Part shown: one piece after another, positions 32,700 to 43,697 of the stretch
How positions within the stretch are numbered: position 1 is the stretch's first letter
Layout: each line of letters starts with the position of its first letter
Sequence record: MF327003
Source of the DNA: Shigella phage Sf14
Strand: one strand, 5' to 3'
Length of the DNA: 64,000 bases
Made by a program: the position numbers and the translations under genes
The notes under the pieces: model-generated
What the model was told of the DNA's origin: nothing
The model's input: the letters and a program-made list of their open reading frames with translations, nothing else
Database searches by the model: none

Positions 32700-35460
<2,761 letters not shown>

Positions 35461-35461
<1 letters not shown>

Positions 35462-35877
35462 TGAAAACAGATTTTGCAATCAATCTTGGTGGTGACTACG
35501 TAGCTAAATTAGGAAATGATTCTGTATACGTTGCTCACGGAGATTTAAAAATTACGGGTAATCAGATTAGAATTATCCCAGAAGACGATAAAGCTACTCA
35601 GGTAGCTCAAAGATTACATATTAGGTGTCTTCTAAGGGCTGGAGAAGTATTCTTTAATACATCTGCTGGATTCCCTTATTTACAGCTTGCTAAGTTCAAG
35701 CAGAAGACCTCTATTTTTGATAATTATATGAAAGGTTACCTTGTTGAAACGAGAGATGTAACAAACATCTACAACTACTCTTCAACAATGGATAATGCAA
35801 TGAGAAAAGTGTCAGTCAGATTTAATGCAACGACAACTGCTGACGATGTTGAAATTAATACAGAGGTAAACATTTAA
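35461..35877 (+). CDS. baseplate wedge protein, gpW/gp25-like (candidate)
   Basis: 138 aa with [14 protein letters not shown] pattern typical of small baseplate wedge proteins. Confidence 0.45.
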
Positions 35878-37346
35878 TGGCTGGATTAACAACTACAGGT
35901 TTACAAACAAAAAGATATCAAGAAATCTTGGATGATGTTAAAGCAAGTCTGTATAGAGATATCTCACCAAACCTTGATGTTTCTGAAGATAGCGAACTTG
36001 GGTTATTCTTAGCTTCTGTTTGCCGAGGTCTTGCAGACGTTCATGAAATCTTGTCAGAAATCTATGATGGTGGTACTATTGACAAAGCTGAAGGATTCAG
36101 TTTAGATGATGTAACAGCTTTGAATGCTGTATACAGATATGTGGCACAAGCTACAAGAGGTCAAGCTGAGTTCACTGGTAACTCTGGTGCTCCTGTACCA
36201 GCAACTACAAGATTAAGAAGCACAGCAGGTAACATCTTTTACCCTGTGTCAACTTTCACGCTGACTCCATCTTACTGTGTAGAGGCAAACTTAGAAGTTA
36301 ACTCTTTACGAACAGATGCAAACTATGTTATTATCATTGATAACATTGAGTATTCATATCAGCCGACTAGCTCTGATACCATTACAACATTGCTACAGAA
36401 ACTTGCAGATGCTATTAATGGTGGTATTATTGCAAAGGCTGAAGTTACTAATGATGGCTCAGTTCTAAGAATCTATAAAGACACTGGAGATATCATTGCC
36501 AGAACTAACCCTATGGTTGTTACTGCAACGACATTCTTAACATTTACAAAGATTACTTCAATCAGTGACGTTGTAGCAGATGAAACTGGAGCTATCCAGA
36601 CTCTGGCAGGAACCTTGATTGAGATTGAAACAACTGTAGATGGTCTTGATAGTGTCTTCAACAGATATGATTTGACAACAGGTCGTGATGAGGAAACTGA
36701 CACAGAACTGAGACAACGTTACTTAGAATCTCTGGCTGTTACCGGTGTAGGTACTCTGGATGCTATTGTAGCTGCTGTAAAGAGAGTTCAAGGTGTGTCT
36801 GACGCTTCTGGTGTAGAAAATGATACTGAGACAACAAACTCTGATGGTCTTCCTCCGAAGTCTTTTAAGATTGTTGTAGTTGGTGGTCAGAATGATAATA
36901 TTGCACAGGCAATCTGGGACACGAAACCTGCTGGTATTCGCCCATATGGTGCAATCTTTGGGACTGCATATGACTTAGGCTCTCTCCCTCACGATGTTTA
37001 CTTTAGTAGACCAATGCCTAAATACGTTTTTGTCAAGGTCACTTACTCTCTTTACGATGAAGAAACTCTTAACATCCCTGAACAGGATATTCATGACAGA
37101 ATTGTTCAAGGTATCAATACCTATGGTAGAACGTTGAAAGTTGGTAACGATGTAATCCCTAACAGAATTTATGGGCATATCTATGATGTGATTCAAGGTA
37201 TTGAGATTAATGAGATTAAGGTTGCACTTTCAAACAACCAAGCAATTCCACCTGCTGATGAGCAGTACACCACTTCAAGAATTACTATTGATGGTGACCA
37301 GTACACTGTTTGGGAAAGCTCACAGTATACAATTACCAAGGAGTAA
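35877..37346 (+). CDS. baseplate J-like protein (candidate)
   Basis: 489 aa following W-like gene. Confidence 0.4.
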
Positions 37347-37348
37347 CA

Positions 37349-38206
37349 ATGTTTAAAAAGATTGAAAACTTTTATGAGAAAACATTGGACGAAAGAACTG
37401 TAACTCAATTCAAAGATAAGTTTATTTACACAAGTCTATTGAAATCTATCACAGATGAGTTACAATTATTAGAGGATATTAGTAATCAGTTATATACTGA
37501 AAGAAATATTCGTGTAGGTGTTGGCACACAACTTGATAACATCGGGGCTTTGATTAAAGTCCCTAGACCTATTGGTGCTGATGATGACATTTACAGAGCT
37601 ACCCTCTACATTCAAATTTTCTTAAGACGTTCTGACACCACACCAAGCTTCTTACAAAAAGCTGTTATGACCCTTTACAACGCATCATTCAGTCAGATTT
37701 TTGAGCACATTACGCCAATGACTGGTGGAATTGTTATCCGTGTAAACACTCGTAATGACGTGTTAGATACAGCATACACACTTTCTAAGATTGCTGCAAC
37801 AACTATTGGTTCAGCAGTTATCCTTAGAGATGTTACCTTAAATGGCACTGCTTGGACTCCTGTAGAGGTTGCTGATTCATCTCTGGCAATCACTGATGAG
37901 AACAATAACTGGTTTGTAACAAACACTAACAAGGGTCTTATTACGAACAACACAGGTGGCTCTCTAGAAGCAAATAAATTAGGTAGTTTTGCAGATGCAG
38001 GTGTAAGAGATGGTTATGTAAGAGTGGATAAAACTGGTGGAAGTACCAGTAAAGATTATTTAAAAGTCAGCAAAACAAACAATAGCAACGACTATTTCAT
38101 TGCTGGTAAAGAAACAGTAGCAGGTGGTGATTATGGGATTATGGCAGAAGTCGCCCAAATCGTCAAAGGCAGAAAAGATAAATCTCAACAAGAAGGAAGT
38201 TCATAA
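37349..38206 (+). CDS. baseplate/tail fiber-associated protein
   Basis: start trimmed to ATG 37349 with AAGGAG upstream. Confidence 0.45.
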
Positions 38207-38505
38207 TGTCTCTTTCATGGTCTACAGACACAGTTGATGCTGACGGTAACCAGCTTAAAGTTTTACCACCTCCAGAAATTCAAGCCACTGGCCTATTAAG
38301 GGGTGAACCTATGGGTCGTCAGTGGTTTAACTATATTATCAACTATTTGCTTAACAAAGTAAATGGTACGGTTGGAGAGGTTCGTTCATTTGCTACGGAG
38401 CAACCTGATTTAGTTTCCAATGGTTGGGAATTAATTGACACAGTAACAGGAACTGCACCCACTAGCACGACTAACCTTTACACATACGAATATAAAGGGA
38501 GCTAA
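38206..38505 (+). CDS. hypothetical tail protein (99 aa)
   Basis: ORF track. Confidence 0.4.
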
Positions 38506-38507
38506 TA

Positions 38508-39683
38508 ATGCCAGTCGGTGAAATTCAAATTAGTGCATTGCCTCAAGCCTCATTGCCTATTGATTTAAGTGATATCTTTCACCTTAAGCAAGGTATCGAG
38601 GATAAACGATGCACACTTGAGCAATTACTTGCTCCACACGCATCTTTAAGAAATAACCCACACGGTGTTACAAAGGTTCACGTAGAACTCGGTAATGTTG
38701 TTAACGCACTCCAATTAGTGGCTGCTAATAACTTGTCAGACGTGGTTAGTGTTGAAGAGGCTAGGCAGAACCTTAATATTCTATCAAGTGATGAAGTTAA
38801 TGCCCTTATTCAGAATCACATTAATGACAAGAATAACCCTCACAACACTAACAAGATTCAAGTAGGTTTGTCTAATATTCAAAACTGGACATATTCAAAC
38901 TCTTACTCTGAGGATGCTGATAAGTATGCTACTGCAAAAGCTGTGAATGCTTTATACAGGGCTATCCAGAATAGCTATCCAATCGGTACTATTCATTTGT
39001 CAGTTAACCCTGCAAACCCATCTACATATTTACTTTGTGGTGGTACTTGGGAGTTAGTTTCTAAAGGAAGGTCTCTTGTCGGTTATGACACAGATACAAG
39101 ACCTGTAGAATCAGTATTTGGTTCTGCTACTGTAACACTTACACAAAATAACATTCCAAGTCACACACACTCTGTGTTGTTAACTGGTGGTGGACACTCC
39201 CACAATGCAACAGTAGTAATTTCTAGCTTTGACTATGGGACTAAGAGCACATCAAGTTTTGATTATGGCTCTAAGGCCACAAACGACTCTGGAAGCCACG
39301 CTCATAATGTTAATGGTTCTGTGAGTAGTGCTGGTAGTCACAGCCACAGGATTCCATTGAGGGGTTCTGACAGGGGTGGTGTGAACGCTATTACGGCAAC
39401 GGCTGATGCAGGTGTTGGTAATGCGTCATATACAGACTTTGATGGGGTTCACACACATACCTTCAACGTTAACTCTTCAGTTGGTGGTAACCACTCTCAC
39501 AGTGTGTATATCGGAGCACATGGACACAGTGTTGCAATTGGTTCACATGGACACTCAGGTACTGTGACAGTTCAATCTTCTGAGCACACTCACTCAGGTA
39601 CAACTGGTGCATTTGGTGCTGGACAAGCATTTAATATTGAGCAACCTTCTTATGTTGTATATGTTTGGAAGAGAACTGCGTAA
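38508..39683 (+). CDS. tail fiber protein with His-rich HxH repeat C-terminal domain
   Basis: repeated HSHN/HAHN/HSHR/HTHT/HGHS motifs in last 180 aa. Confidence 0.55.
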   Translation: MPVGEIQISALPQASLPIDLSDIFHLKQGIEDKRCTLEQLLAPHASLRNNPHGVTKVHVELGNVVNALQLVAANNLSDVVSVEEARQNLNILSSDEVNALIQNHINDKNNPHNTNKIQVGLSNIQNWTYSNSYSEDADKYATAKAVNALYRAIQNSYPIGTIHLSVNPANPSTYLLCGGTWELVSKGRSLVGYDTDTRPVESVFGSATVTLTQNNIPSHTHSVLLTGGGHSHNATVVISSFDYGTKSTSSFDYGSKATNDSGSHAHNVNGSVSSAGSHSHRIPLRGSDRGGVNAITATADAGVGNASYTDFDGVHTHTFNVNSSVGGNHSHSVYIGAHGHSVAIGSHGHSGTVTVQSSEHTHSGTTGAFGAGQAFNIEQPSYVVYVWKRTA

Positions 39684-39728
39684 TTATTTTATAAGGGGCT
39701 ACACAGCCCCTAGAAAGAGGATTTATAA

Positions 39729-42107
39729 ATGGCTGAATATAAGCTAAGTGAGCTAAACAGTATTGATACAGTTCGCTCAGAAGATTTACTTCACCTAAGA
39801 ATTATCAAAAGGTCTGATATGCTAGGTGATGAAGACCGTAAAATGACCTATGCAAATTTCCTTGCCTCTTTCAAACTAGAAAGATTCTTACAACTAACTG
39901 GTGGGGATATGACAGGGAATCTTGGCATCGTCAAATTAAGATACGGTGGAAAAGACTTATTAGACCCAACAGGTTCTTCTGAGGTTATTCTCGGTGACAC
40001 TGCCAAGACCTTTAGAATTAATGCAAGTGCTTTAAGATTAACTGTAAATGATGCCACAAGGTCTGCAACAGTTTATCACACACTTAATAAACCATCTCCT
40101 AATGAATTAGGTATGAGAACTAATACTGAAAATGATGCAAGATACGCTATGAAGGAAACTGAAAATACCTTCTTGGCAAGACAAATCATTAATATCAACG
40201 GTGTTGGTTTGACACTTAAAAGTATCTTACCAGATGGTGGAGCATATATTGAAGCAAGAGACTCAAATAATGCTTTGAGATTCACAGTTGGTAACTTGAC
40301 TTCTGGGACTGATGTTACATTAGTTAACAGCAAAGGTGCTACGTTGACTCTTGGTACAAACTCTGTTAGTGTTGACAAGAACTTTGAAATCAATGGTCAG
40401 GTTCAGCCTAATAACTGGAACAACCTTGATGCAAGATTCTTTACACAGACTGCTGCTGACCAGAGATTTGCAAGACTTAATGCAAGTAATAACTTTGTTG
40501 GGGTTAACAACTTCAACGGGAAGACTTATGTTATTGCAGATAGTAATGCACTTAACTTAAGAGCGGCTTCAGAGAATGCTGCATTATTTATGCGTGGTTA
40601 CAACAGTGCTGGGACAGGTGCTTGGTATGTGGGTCAACCAGATGGTACGCAGTCTGAGATTGTTTTAGCAAACCAGATGACAAATGTTAACTTGAAAATT
40701 GCTACAGAGTTTTCATTTAACAAAGCTATTAATGTAACTGGTCAGGTAAAACCAAGTGACTTCGCAAACTTTGATACAAGATATGTTCCAAGCTCTTTAA
40801 CAAACGTGCTTGCAAGAACTAATGCTGCAAACGTTTTTACTAACCCACAAACTATTGTTACTACAGATGCGGCTTTCACATTGCAAAGTGGGACAGCTAA
40901 TTCATCACTATATATTGTTGGTGCTAATGCAGATGGAAACAGACGTTGGTATGTTGGTAACGGTGAAGGTAGTAGACCAAACTCTCTGTTCCTGTACAAC
41001 TACTCAAGCGGTGGTGTACAGTTAGAAATTGCTGATACTTTCATGTTTAATAGAAGCGTATCAGTATCTGGTCAGGTTCAGCCTACAGATTGGACAAACT
41101 TTGACTCAAGATACTACACACAATCTGCTGCAAACTCAAGATATATGTTGTCTGGTGTATCTGGAACGGGAACCGAAGTCGGTGATGCAACAGGTATTGC
41201 TTGGAATGCAAAAACAGGTTTGTACAATGTTACCAACTCAACTGGTGGTTCGACTCACTTAGTTTACCAAATGTACCTTGGAATTGGCGCATCCACACCT
41301 TCTGCACAGCTTAAATTTAACTATAAGAATGGTGGAATCCACTATAGAACAGCAAGGGATGCTTTTGGTTTTGAAGAGGCTTGGGCTAAAATCTACACAG
41401 ACCAAGACAAACCTACACCTTCCGAGATTGGTACTTACACCAAGGCTGAAGTAGACCAACGTATTGCTTCTGCTGTAACTGATTCTACAGACCTTAAAAA
41501 AGTGTATCCAGTTGGTATTGTGACGTTCTTTGCTTCTAATGTCAACCCAAATACAGCTTTCCCAGGCACTACTTGGACTTACTTGACAGAAGGTGCAAAC
41601 AGAACTATTAGAATCGGCTCTGCGAATGGCTCTGATGTGAAAGGTCTTGGGGGTGCTGATACGGTTGCATTAAGTGTTGGTCACATCCCTGCGCACACTC
41701 ACGGATTCTCTGGAACGACTTCTTGGTTTGACTATGGTACTAAGTACACAGATGCTCAGGGTGCTCACGACCATGACAGAGGTAACATGGAAATATCTGG
41801 GGTGTTCGGGTGGTTCAGAAGTGATAATGCTGCATTCTATACTGCAAGTGGTGCTTTTGCAATGGGTGGTAGTCAGGCTTCTCATGGTTTCACTGGTTCT
41901 AACTTCACATATGGTGCTCCAGTTGATTTCTATGCTTCCAGAACTTGGACGGGTAGAACAAGCTGGGTAGGTGCTCATGCTCACGGTGTAGGTATTGGTG
42001 GACACAACCACACATTTAGTGGTGATACTGGTGCAACTGGTTCTGGTGCAGCATTCAGTGTTCTTAACACTTACATTAAATTAATGGCTTGGGTAAGAAC
42101 TGCATAA
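39729..42107 (+). CDS. long tail fiber protein sharing HxH C-terminal module
   Basis: 792 aa; internal repeats (GQVQP..W.N.D.R); C-terminal IPAHTHGFSG..HDHD..HAHG..HNHT. Confidence 0.6.
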   Translation: MAEYKLSELNSIDTVRSEDLLHLRIIKRSDMLGDEDRKMTYANFLASFKLERFLQLTGGDMTGNLGIVKLRYGGKDLLDPTGSSEVILGDTAKTFRINASALRLTVNDATRSATVYHTLNKPSPNELGMRTNTENDARYAMKETENTFLARQIININGVGLTLKSILPDGGAYIEARDSNNALRFTVGNLTSGTDVTLVNSKGATLTLGTNSVSVDKNFEINGQVQPNNWNNLDARFFTQTAADQRFARLNASNNFVGVNNFNGKTYVIADSNALNLRAASENAALFMRGYNSAGTGAWYVGQPDGTQSEIVLANQMTNVNLKIATEFSFNKAINVTGQVKPSDFANFDTRYVPSSLTNVLARTNAANVFTNPQTIVTTDAAFTLQSGTANSSLYIVGANADGNRRWYVGNGEGSRPNSLFLYNYSSGGVQLEIADTFMFNRSVSVSGQVQPTDWTNFDSRYYTQSAANSRYMLSGVSGTGTEVGDATGIAWNAKTGLYNVTNSTGGSTHLVYQMYLGIGASTPSAQLKFNYKNGGIHYRTARDAFGFEEAWAKIYTDQDKPTPSEIGTYTKAEVDQRIASAVTDSTDLKKVYPVGIVTFFASNVNPNTAFPGTTWTYLTEGANRTIRIGSANGSDVKGLGGADTVALSVGHIPAHTHGFSGTTSWFDYGTKYTDAQGAHDHDRGNMEISGVFGWFRSDNAAFYTASGAFAMGGSQASHGFTGSNFTYGAPVDFYASRTWTGRTSWVGAHAHGVGIGGHNHTFSGDTGATGSGAAFSVLNTYIKLMAWVRTA

Positions 42108-42115
42108 TTACCTTG

Positions 42116-42144
42116 TTGACTAACTGTCAAGATGGTGTTAATAT
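42116..42144 (+). promoter_or_regulatory. promoter TTGACT-N17-TAATAT
   Basis: -35 42116-42121, -10 42139-42144. Confidence 0.55.
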
Positions 42145-42193
42145 TTCTTAGTAGGTATTCTCACCATCTTGGCTCAAGAAGTAAGGTGATTAA

Positions 42194-42388
42194 ATGCCAA
42201 CCATTCTAGCAATCCTCATGAAAAACCTTGGGGCATTCTTTTGGAAGCTTCTTTTTTCTCTTCTCAGTGAATACATGATTGAAAAAGTGTTCTTTAAGCT
42301 TGCAAGATACCTTGCGAGTAAAACAGATACACCTATTGATGATGAATTTGTAGATACCTTGGAAAAGGCTTTTAAAGGTGAGAAATAA
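42194..42388 (+). CDS. small membrane protein (64 aa)
   Basis: N-terminal hydrophobic segment ILAILMKNLGAFFWKLLFSLL. Confidence 0.5.
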   Translation: MPTILAILMKNLGAFFWKLLFSLLSEYMIEKVFFKLARYLASKTDTPIDDEFVDTLEKAFKGEK

Positions 42389-42762
42389 TGAAGTGGCTTG
42401 AAGATGCTTTTAAGAATAATATTGGTGCAATCGTTGTAGGTATTTTCAGTGTAATTGGTATGTACACTACAATGCAGGTCTCTGATGGTAAACAGGAAGT
42501 GTCTATCACAAATAAGTTACAGCAGTTGGATGGTTACTCAAAAGGTAACTATTCAGCTATTCGTGACTTACAATCTGATATGAAGCTCCTACAATTAGGG
42601 ATGGAGAACCAGAAAGTTCAGCTAGAGAATGTTAAGGGAGAAAACGCTAAGTTGACTAAGACCCTTGATAAGTTCTCTGACAGTGTTAACAACTTAGCAC
42701 AATCTGTATCAGCTTTGCAAGCAATTACAGAACAAAATACCCAAAGCACTAAAAAGAAATAA
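42388..42762 (+). CDS. membrane-anchored coiled-coil protein (124 aa)
   Basis: N-terminal TM IGAIVVGIFSVIGMYTT then heptad-rich region. Confidence 0.5.
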   Translation: MKWLEDAFKNNIGAIVVGIFSVIGMYTTMQVSDGKQEVSITNKLQQLDGYSKGNYSAIRDLQSDMKLLQLGMENQKVQLENVKGENAKLTKTLDKFSDSVNNLAQSVSALQAITEQNTQSTKKK

Positions 42763-42767
42763 TTCTA

Positions 42768-42797
42768 AGGCTCCTTTTTACGGGAGCCTTTTTGTTT
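42768..42797 (+). terminator. intrinsic terminator AGGCTCC..GGAGCCT + TTTT
   Basis: 7-bp stem followed by T-run; sits between convergent units. Confidence 0.65.
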
Positions 42798-43697
42798 CTA
42801 CTTACCTACTGATAAAGGTGCTTCAATCTTACCAGCATGTTTATACCCTTTCAATCCACCTAGGAAGTCATCTGCTGTCATATGTCTCAAATCTTCAAGG
42901 GACTTCAAATCTTGATGAATTTCAAACTTAGGTGCTGGAAACTCTTCATTGCCAAGAAGCTGAAAAACCTGCGACATATGGTTCTGATAGATTTGAGTAT
43001 CACCATAAGTCCCTACCAGATATCGCGGTGTATATCCCGTCAGTTTACACAATACTTCCAAGATAAAGGCATAGGAAGCAATGTTAAACGGTAACCCTAA
43101 GAACGTATCACAAGAGCGCTGATACCATTTCAAATCCACCTCATTAGTGTTCGAGATATAAATCTGAAAAAGTACATGGCAAGGTGCTAATGCCATAGAG
43201 TTACTTGAGATATCTGCTGCATTCCATGCGTTAACGAGCATGTAACGGTCTGTAGGAGACTTTCTCATCTTCTCTACAAGATTACTCAACTGGTCTACAA
43301 CAACGCCACCATGACCTTCGTAGGCTCTCCATTGGACCCCATAGATTCTTCCTCCAGCGTCCTCCAGCCAATCATTCTCTGTAGCATAGGTTGTTTTCAA
43401 CCAACGTTTAAAATCATCTGTCCAGATAGTCCAACGCTCTCCGTCGTTCTCTCCCCAAGTTCTGTAACGCAAATGACCTAGTTGGTTTTCACCGTTCATA
43501 AACCATAATGCTTCACCGAGGACTTGACGCATAAATGTTTGTTTTGAGGTGATTAATGGAAATCCACTACGCATATCAAAACGGAACTCAGGTGGAGCAA
43601 AGGTCGAAATCACTGAGCCAGTTCGGGTTTTACGCAACTCACCAACTGATAAAACATGGTTTAAAATAGCTTTGTAGCTTACATCTGCTTGTGACAT
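42798..43697 (-). CDS. thyA: thymidylate synthase
   Basis: MALAPCH active-site motif, YQRSCDTFLGLPFNIASYA near-identical to enterobacterial ThyA. Confidence 0.9.
   Translation of the reverse strand: MSQADVSYKAILNHVLSVGELRKTRTGSVISTFAPPEFRFDMRSGFPLITSKQTFMRQVLGEALWFMNGENQLGHLRYRTWGENDGERWTIWTDDFKRWLKTTYATENDWLEDAGGRIYGVQWRAYEGHGGVVVDQLSNLVEKMRKSPTDRYMLVNAWNAADISSNSMALAPCHVLFQIYISNTNEVDLKWYQRSCDTFLGLPFNIASYAFILEVLCKLTGYTPRYLVGTYGDTQIYQNHMSQVFQLLGNEEFPAPKFEIHQDLKSLEDLRHMTADDFLGGLKGYKHAGKIEAPLSVGK

Follow-up and report, generated by a model that had tools for sequence, protein, structure and literature searches.

The window analysed here is a stretch of 64,000 nucleotides from Shigella phage Sf14 (MF327003), and the genes in question are two neighbouring genes on its plus strand, which encode proteins of 391 amino acids (38508-39683) and 792 amino acids (39729-42107). 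Over positions 38206 to 42400 the DNA is 100.0% identical to that of Shigella phage Sf16 (MF158043.1), which is placed by the NCBI taxonomy in the Ounavirinae, genus Mooglevirus, species Mooglevirus Sf14. The shorter open reading frame (ORF) is a 100% match to gp59 of MF158043.1 and corresponds to Sf14 gp52 and to the short tail fiber gp26 of phage Bas63. The longer one is a 100% match to Sf16 gp60 and corresponds to Sf14 gp53 and to the long tail fiber gp27 of Bas63. In the GenBank record of Sf16, gp59 is named 'putative tail protein' and gp60 'tail fiber protein', the latter being tied to a T7 gp17-like domain. The short protein was assigned to phrog_2097 ('tail fiber', E 5e-131) and to Pfam Gp10_C (63.5 bits) and is 67% identical to its FelixO1 counterpart; the long protein was assigned to phrog_4277 (E 0), with 55% identity to the counterpart in FelixO1. 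Very likely, the two proteins are the short and the long tail fiber that a FelixO1-like myovirus carries on its baseplate, with a tip of the T4 gp37 type on both of them.

The original prediction, made from the DNA sequence of this region, had pointed to iterated histidine-x-histidine (HxH) motifs at both C-termini, about ten of them in the short protein. The repeats could be confirmed, the number in the short protein being nine (residues 219, 230, 264, 278, 315, 329, 338, 347, and 360), and four HxH were found in the long fiber (residues 656, 680, 750, and 759). In composition-preserving shuffles of the short fiber the mean was 1.5 HxH and the maximum seven, so that none of 20,000 reached nine. 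For the long fiber the mean was 0.24, and four HxH were reached in 2 of 20,000 shuffles. Chance or a low-complexity richness in histidine was ruled out by these shuffles together with the conservation of the histidines described below. The sequence IP(S/A)HTH was likewise found in both proteins, as NIPSHTHS in the short fiber (215-222) and HIPAHTHG in the long fiber (652-659), though it does not precede the series as had been claimed but forms the first HxH of each.

None of the other ORFs of at least 100 amino acids in the window contains more than two HxH motifs. The sole other protein with more than one is encoded by a 471-amino-acid ORF (12570-13985, plus strand), in which the N-terminal HSHLH makes up two overlapping HxH; this protein bears no relation to the fibers. 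One HxH (H194-T-H196, in NEHTHHYYW) is located in the central spike protein of 213 amino acids (34820-35461, plus strand), and according to the Sf14 paper (PMC11821841) this is where the tail needle binds iron. As the spike and both fibers carry the motif, three different tail proteins in the window appear to use the HxH device.

The short fiber begins with a region of 150 residues (38508-38957) that contains the motif E31-D-K-R-C35-T and two fiber repeats of the form NNPH..TK.QVGL.N at residues 50 and 110. This region is 80-90% identical over the Ounavirinae homologues, and it is assigned to baseplate binding after two structural studies (PMC11821841, PMC12609058). It is followed by the first part of a collar (residues 151-228, 38958-39191) with the predicted fold of T4 gp10, gp11, gp12, and gp37 domain D10, which ends in IPSHTH with H219 and H221. 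Based on the alignment with T4, the rest of the protein could be divided into an outgoing needle strand (residues 229-280, 39192-39347) with two copies of the FDYG(T/S)K motif and HxH 230, 264, and 278, a hypervariable head or tip subdomain at the putative fold-back point (residues 281-308, 39348-39431), and a returning needle strand (residues 309-365, 39432-39602) with HxH 315, 329, 338, 347, and 360, aligned to T4 HxH 4 to 7. The collar is closed by residues 366-391 (39603-39680), which end in …AFNIEQPSYVVYVWKRTA and align with the long fiber C-terminus, …AFSVLNTYIKLMAWVRTA.

This division was derived from T4 gp37, whose limits are residues 811-881 and 1010-1026 for the collar D10, 882-931 and 960-1009 for the stem, and 932-959 for the tip (PMC6957217). 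The short fiber matches the T4 structure (PDB 2XGF) with an E-value of 4e-25 on its own and 6e-60 as a family profile, the latter over chain residues 16-239 of 242. Within this match, an ungapped block of 103 residues equates short fiber 245-347 with T4 gp37 896-998. Here H278 and H280 fall on the T4 iron ligands H929 and H931, both of which are essential in T4 (PMC6957217), and the T4 tip 932-959 falls on residues 281-308. The H230xH232 motif is aligned with the first HxH of the T4 needle in the gapped part (residues 229-244) that precedes the block. In this way, 7 of the 7 iron-binding HxH of T4 are matched by HxH of the short fiber, and the two extra ones, 219 and 360, lie where the outgoing and the returning arm, respectively, are nearest to the collar. 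The needle forms an insertion in a collar of the gp10/gp11/gp12 fold. A fold-back of the chain in the short fiber is implied by the ungapped block and is backed by the published AlphaFold and cryo-electron microscopy results on Bas63 (PMC12609058). The resemblance of the C-termini to metal-coordinating needle or tip domains of receptor-binding proteins, which had been proposed from the motifs, thus holds at the level of homology (2XGF, 7/7 HxH in register). An AlphaFold2 monomer model of residues 140-391 reached a mean predicted local distance difference test score (pLDDT) of 70.7. In this model the collar is confident (88-91 in its closing part), and on either side of a loop of low confidence (residues 285-307, pLDDT <50) there is a series of short strands, the two series mirroring each other.

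In the long fiber, the N-terminal baseplate-binding region (residues 1-140, 39729-40148) contains E35-D-R-K-M39-T and is 73-100% identical among the homologues tabulated. A shaft follows (residues 141-475, 40149-41153), in which three gp37_trimer repeats (PF20744) were detected by Pfam as three stretches with an E-value of 3.9e-44. Each of the repeats ends in GQV(Q/K)P…(D/T)(A/T/S)R(F/Y), at residues 223, 338, and 448, and all three match the pyramid region of T7 gp17 (PDB 4A0T, profile E 1.3e-4). The shaft is the least conserved part of the long fiber, with 35-64% identity outside the closest relatives. Residues 476-585 (41154-41483) form a domain like that of the Mu S fiber, detected as Pfam gp37_C (PF12604, E 3.2e-20) and, for residues 477-582, by comparison with Mu S itself (PDB 8JU3, E 3e-21 alone and 1.2e-27 as a profile). 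The first part of the collar (residues 586-655, 41484-41693) was identified by hhalign with the short fiber collar and ends in HIPA just before H656; the collar family PF21939 is present in many long-fiber homologues. The outgoing needle strand (residues 656-682, 41694-41774) carries HxH 656 and 680 and one FDYGTK, and the returning strand (residues 750-765, 41976-42023) carries HxH 750 and 759. These four motifs align to T4 HxH numbers 1, 2, 5, and 6. Between the strands lies a head insert of about 67 amino acids (residues 683-749, 41775-41975; RGNMEISGVFGWFRSD…FYASRTW), in whose span no HxH counterpart of T4 was found, and which, as judged from the alignment, takes the place of the T4 distal stem and tip. 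The closing part of the collar (residues 766-792, 42024-42104) aligns with the C-terminus of the short fiber. Against 2XGF, the long fiber has an E-value of 1e-3 alone and 6.7e-9 as a profile, the match being limited to needle residues 98-217.

A short N-terminal motif is common to both fibers, EDKRCT at residues 31-36 of the short fiber (38598-38615) and EDRKMT at residues 35-40 of the long fiber (39831-39848). The N-termini are dissimilar outside this motif, and no N-terminal similarity between the two fibers was listed by hhalign, in which only the C-terminal module matches. For Bas63, the baseplate-binding domains of the two fibers are described as alike in structure and not in sequence (PMC12609058). 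The short-fiber motif is given as E-D-R-K-C-T in the Sf14 paper (PMC11821841), whereas it reads E-D-K-R-C-T in the sequence analysed here.

The original prediction depended on similarity between the two C-termini, and an alignment was found both by BLASTP of short fiber 153-391 against long fiber 589-792 (27% identity, E 3e-15) and by hhalign of the two family profiles with 62 and 60 members (probability 100%, E 1.1e-40). The shared tip that had been suggested from this likeness is therefore retained for the scaffold of collar and needle, which is common to both at 27-30% identity, but not for the heads, which comprise about 28 hypervariable residues in the short fiber and about 67 residues with another sequence in the long fiber.

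The conservation of these parts was assessed with 60 full-length homologues of the short fiber and 120 homologues of the long fiber. In the short fiber, 16 of the 18 HxH histidines are 92-100% conserved (92-98% for those of the returning arm), the remaining two, H264 and H266, being conserved in only 65% and 72%. Exactly nine HxH are present in 51 of 61 short-fiber sequences. All eight HxH histidines of the long fiber are 98-100% conserved (outgoing arm 100%, returning arm 98-99%). In the head window of the short fiber (residues 281-314), most homologues with N-termini of about 80-90% identity and needle arms of 40-70% show only 3-29% identity, and the head sequence is retained in the closest relatives. 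Over the subfamily as a whole, the head of the short fiber is the hypervariable element. A conserved needle with a variable head would fit a scaffold that bears a receptor-binding cassette. For the long fiber, two tip classes could be distinguished: type I, with four HxH and a large head, comprises 108 of 121 sequences including Sf16, and type II, with six HxH and a shorter head, comprises 11 of 121.

The head of the Sf16 long fiber is unlike that of the close relatives Sf15 and Sf13. On the DNA level, Sf16 and Sf15 are 97-100% identical over most of the locus and 87-96% identical towards the 3′ end of the long-fiber gene, as in the stretch that immediately precedes a mosaic patch at 41731-41955 (about residues 668-742 of the long fiber). 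In this patch the identity to Sf15 falls to 69-77%, compared with 79-84% to the Felixounavirus SP22. Of the 82 codons from 668 to 749, 36 differ between Sf16 and Sf15, and 24 of these 36 changes are synonymous; in the long-fiber shaft, 37 of 475 codons differ. The short fiber shows 21 nucleotide differences to Sf15, all of them silent. A weaker dip against Sf15 (87%) was seen at 41206-41430, in the Mu S-like domain. This pattern indicates the import of an older segment and argues against local selection. On this basis, it is tentatively suggested, at somewhat less than even odds, that the head patch of about 225 base pairs (bp) was swapped by recombination relative to Sf15, is nearer to Felixounavirus, and that head cassettes may move apart from the needle scaffold. 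The module exchange that had been put forward from the likeness of the two fibers was thus not seen between the two genes of one phage, but it was seen between phages, in the long-fiber head patch of Sf16 and Sf15. If head cassettes do move in this way, retargeting of these phages would most naturally make use of them as units, and host-range differences among Sf13-Sf19 might map to the patch at 41731-41955.

Taken with T4 gp37 as a model, each fiber would be a homotrimer with its N-terminus anchored to the baseplate. From the collar with its gp10/gp11/gp12 fold, a long needle would extend in which the chain runs out, folds back at the head, and returns, so that the needle would be a six-stranded beta structure. 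The HxH of both arms would face the three-fold axis, with six histidines from three chains contributing to each metal site; the metal bound in the T4 needle is Fe2+ (PMC6957217). Stacked metal sites would keep the chains in register and stiffen the needle, and the distal head would contact the receptor, which in this group of phages is probably the lipopolysaccharide (LPS) core. Most likely, the structures recognised by the two fibers are not the same. The idea of two receptor specificities, raised along with that of module exchange, is therefore plausible, as the heads are not shared. The same hypothesis was put forward by the authors of the Sf14 study, who propose different receptors for the two fibers, at least one of which is probably the LPS outer core (PMC11821841). 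The short fiber would offer up to nine candidate sites and a head of about 28 amino acids, and the long fiber four candidate sites and a head of about 67 amino acids.

The assignment of gp37-type tips is drawn from the homology, the HxH register, the conservation pattern, and the mosaicism of the head cassette, and T4 together with the published cryo-electron microscopy (cryo-EM) is the basis on which we infer trimer formation, metal occupancy, and receptor contact for both fibers. It is conceivable that the HxH motifs are kept for the packing of beta-strands or for assembly only, with no metal or with one other than iron, such as the zinc that is bound, in place of iron, by related collar domains (T4 gp12). 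In favor of this, the metal assignment rests on homology, the long fiber retains only four sites, and H264 and H266 are conserved in just 65-72% of the aligned short-fiber homologues. It is nevertheless unlikely, since the short fiber matches all seven iron-site HxH of T4, most HxH histidines are near-invariant amid varying neighbours, and the equivalent T4 histidines H929 and H931 are essential (PMC6957217). Still less probable is an assignment of the 391-amino-acid protein to the baseplate wedges or tail pins, in the manner of T4 gp10 or gp11, with the histidine-rich end serving as a baseplate joint. The alignments with T4 gp10 are restricted to the short fiber collar (residues 143-228), and the remainder matches the needle and tip of gp37 along its whole length; in addition, the protein is a 430 Å fiber in the cryo-EM of Sf14 and Bas63 (PMC11821841, PMC12609058), and a hypervariable head is what one expects of a receptor-binding site. 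The likeness of the C-termini might also stem from a recent tip exchange or duplication between the two genes of one phage, which would agree with the common architecture and the same final residues (…W(K/V)RTA). This has hardly any probability in view of an identity of only 27-30%, large indels (21 amino acids, and heads of 28 and 67 amino acids), and a score of the short-fiber module of 92 bits against T4 gp37 compared with 65 bits against its own long fiber. Both genes also persist as separate conserved families across the Ounavirinae, which points to an old divergence. A recent duplication between the fiber genes was ruled out by the identity of 27-30%, and the two genes are, as far as their sequences tell, old and diverged relatives.

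Several results weigh against gp37-type tips on both fibers. The long fiber collar reached 25.9 bits with Pfam Gp10_C, the curated cut-off of which is 27 bits. The AlphaFold2 monomer model of long fiber residues 575-792, computed with an alignment of 60 sequences, had a mean pLDDT of 49.7 and was unusable; its alignment was made up of close relatives only, and the expected fold is an intertwined trimer. A Foldseek search with the short-fiber model returned only weak matches (best E 5e-3). T4 gp37 requires the folding chaperones gp38 and gp57A (PMC6957217), although no chaperone gene adjoins the fibers here; in a search limited to the adjacent genes, no gp38-, Tfa-, or gp57A-like gene was found at 42194-42762 (plus strand), which contains only phrog_402 and phrog_4038, both with no named function. 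Finally, the gp37/C24-like domain of the short fiber is placed in the middle of the fiber in the Sf14 paper (PMC11821841), which contradicts a fold-back at the tip. The alignment with T4 and the pattern of variability favour the arrangement described for Bas63 over this mid-fiber placement, so that the middle of the module's sequence would be the physical tip.

Between the two fiber genes, the GC-rich hairpin AGGGGCT-ACAC-AGCCCCT is located at 39694-39711 on the plus strand; its sequence is that originally predicted, with the position shifted by one base. It starts 10 nucleotides 3′ of the short fiber stop codon and has a perfect stem of 7 bp with five GC pairs, a loop of four nucleotides, and a predicted energy of -12.7 kcal/mol. 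In the whole 64 kb there are only six GC-rich hairpins with a perfect 7-bp stem, this one included. Past the stem comes AGAAAGAGG, which holds the long-fiber Shine-Dalgarno sequence AAGAGG (39715-39720, plus strand), 8 nucleotides 5′ of the ATG, which itself lies 18 nucleotides beyond the stem; a ribosome-binding site is annotated at the equivalent position in Moogle. An identical stem is present in Moogle (positions 1808-1859), whose record carries the annotation 'terminator'. At the same place, Shy has AGGGGCT-TTGT-AGCCCCT followed by TTTTAA (1511-1563), and FelixO1 has a stem of 8 bp with one G·U pair followed by CTTTCT (2764-2820). The position of the stem is thus kept in two genera, with a partial T-run only in the Felixounavirus versions, and because the differences are in the loop (ACAC, TTGT, GTAC) and the stem sequence is retained, this amounts to positional conservation and not to covariation. 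An Rfam search of positions 38000-43000 gave no match for the hairpin.

An intrinsic terminator that splits the fiber genes into separate transcripts would agree with the GC-rich 7-bp stem of -12.7 kcal/mol 10 nucleotides past a stop codon, with the presence of a stem in this position in Moogle, Shy, and FelixO1, and with the Moogle label and the TTTTAA of Shy. Such a role is rather doubtful, with perhaps one chance in a few, because no T-run follows the stem in Sf16 (AGAAAGAGGATT follows) or in Moogle (ATAAAGAGG… follows) and a scan for the terminator consensus made no call in Sf16. Moreover, the ribosome-binding site and ATG of the long fiber lie within 18 nucleotides of the stem, no promoter above background was found 5′ of the long fiber gene, and the tail carries one set of each fiber (PMC12609058, PMC11821841), from which an equal supply of both seems likely. 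The hairpin is most likely a leaky or partial terminator or a stem that protects a 3′ end in the late transcript, and it is a minor feature of the locus.

Both fiber genes close the late structural gene block. Upstream of them on the plus strand, a baseplate wedge protein of 489 amino acids with a Baseplate_J domain (35877-37346; PF04865, E 8e-16, phrog_6) is followed by a second wedge protein, which has 285 amino acids and a start codon ATG at 37349 in GenBank and lies between the Baseplate_J wedge and a gene for a 99-amino-acid protein. For this second wedge gene, the mechanical ORF list has a TTG start at 37310, which gives 298 amino acids and overlaps the upstream gene; the version with 285 amino acids equals in length the PHROG profile (285 positions) and wedge 1 of Bas63 (285 residues). 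The 99-amino-acid protein, gp58 (38206-38505, plus strand), directly 5′ of the short fiber, belongs to phrog_4141, which has no named function. Going by gene order alone, it may correspond to the long-fiber platform of Bas63, gp25. The order of Baseplate_J wedge, wedge, platform of about 100 amino acids, fiber of about 390, fiber of about 790, and lysis genes is that of Ounavirinae fiber loci such as Bas63, and the same gene order was found in Moogle, FelixO1, Shy, Sf15, and SP22. Two small genes lie 3′ of the fibers, the second of which is annotated as a holin. The late structural and lysis block on the plus strand is separated from convergent genes for thymidylate synthase and dihydrofolate reductase on the minus strand by a strong hairpin at 42767-42790 (AAGGCTCC…GGAGCCTT), which resembles a bidirectional terminator and has a T-run on either strand.

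The HxH iron needle of T4 gp37 has reportedly been known since 2010, and publications from 2025 already describe gp37-type HxH tips on both fibers of FelixO1-like phages as well as the pair of fibers in the Sf14 group. The present analysis adds a residue-level domain map for Sf16, the nine and four candidate metal sites compared with seven in T4, the two tip classes of the long fiber, and the head-cassette patch that tells Sf16 from Sf15. Its use lies in annotation and engineering, and it carries little weight as a discovery. For host-range work with Shigella phages, the map suggests keeping the collar and the HxH needle and exchanging the heads (short fiber 281-308, long fiber 683-749).

Among the known systems, T4 gp37 785-1026 (PDB 2XGF) is one with which the fibers share the collar, the HxH-lined needle, predicted to be six-stranded here as well, a head at the putative fold-back point, and FDYGTK. 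The short-fiber tip is as long as that of T4 and aligns as an ungapped block; it has nine HxH sites (with 219 and 360 as the extra ones) and T4 seven, whereas the long fiber is without the distal stem sites and its head of about 67 amino acids is larger and unrelated. In T4, gp37 is the last segment of a kinked fiber made of four proteins, and gp38 serves as a chaperone; in the present phage the fibers are single proteins that would be attached directly to the baseplate, with no gp38-like gene near them. The C-terminal collar or head domains of T4 gp10, gp11, and gp12 (PF21939 Gp10_C; 2FKK, 1EL6, 1OCY) have no long HxH needle insertion, and gp10 and gp11 are baseplate joints and not receptor binders. 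In Mu S (8JU3) and T7 gp17 (4A0T) the corresponding domains are located at or near the receptor-binding end, whereas here they are internal and followed by collar, needle, and head. The prophage protein C24 of Bizionia argentinensis (6OV6) is a weak match, for which no match was found on the sequence level.

The cryo-EM study of the Felixounavirus Bas63 from 2025 describes a gp37-like collar, an HxH needle, and a head on both fibers (PMC12609058). Its gp26 and gp27 have the same gene order and the same two-fiber arrangement as the proteins described here, with lengths of 430 and 630 Å, and of the structural proteins compared between Bas63 and Sf14 in that paper, the tail fibers are the least alike, at about 52% identity (PMC12609058). 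Seven and six di-histidine motifs are counted in that paper (PMC12609058) and nine and four here. The type II class of long fibers (six HxH, 11 of 121) resembles the description of Bas63 by motif number only, and the HHxH signature of the Bas63 long fiber was not found in the top 120 homologues. In the cryo-EM study of Sf14 from February 2025, AlphaFold trimers of the 391- and 792-amino-acid proteins were docked in the tail map, where the fibers measure 430 and 630 Å, and HxH is mentioned only for the central spike (PMC11821841). Sf14 gp52 and gp53 have the same lengths as the fibers mapped here, and the EDRKMT motif of the long fiber is identical (PMC11821841).

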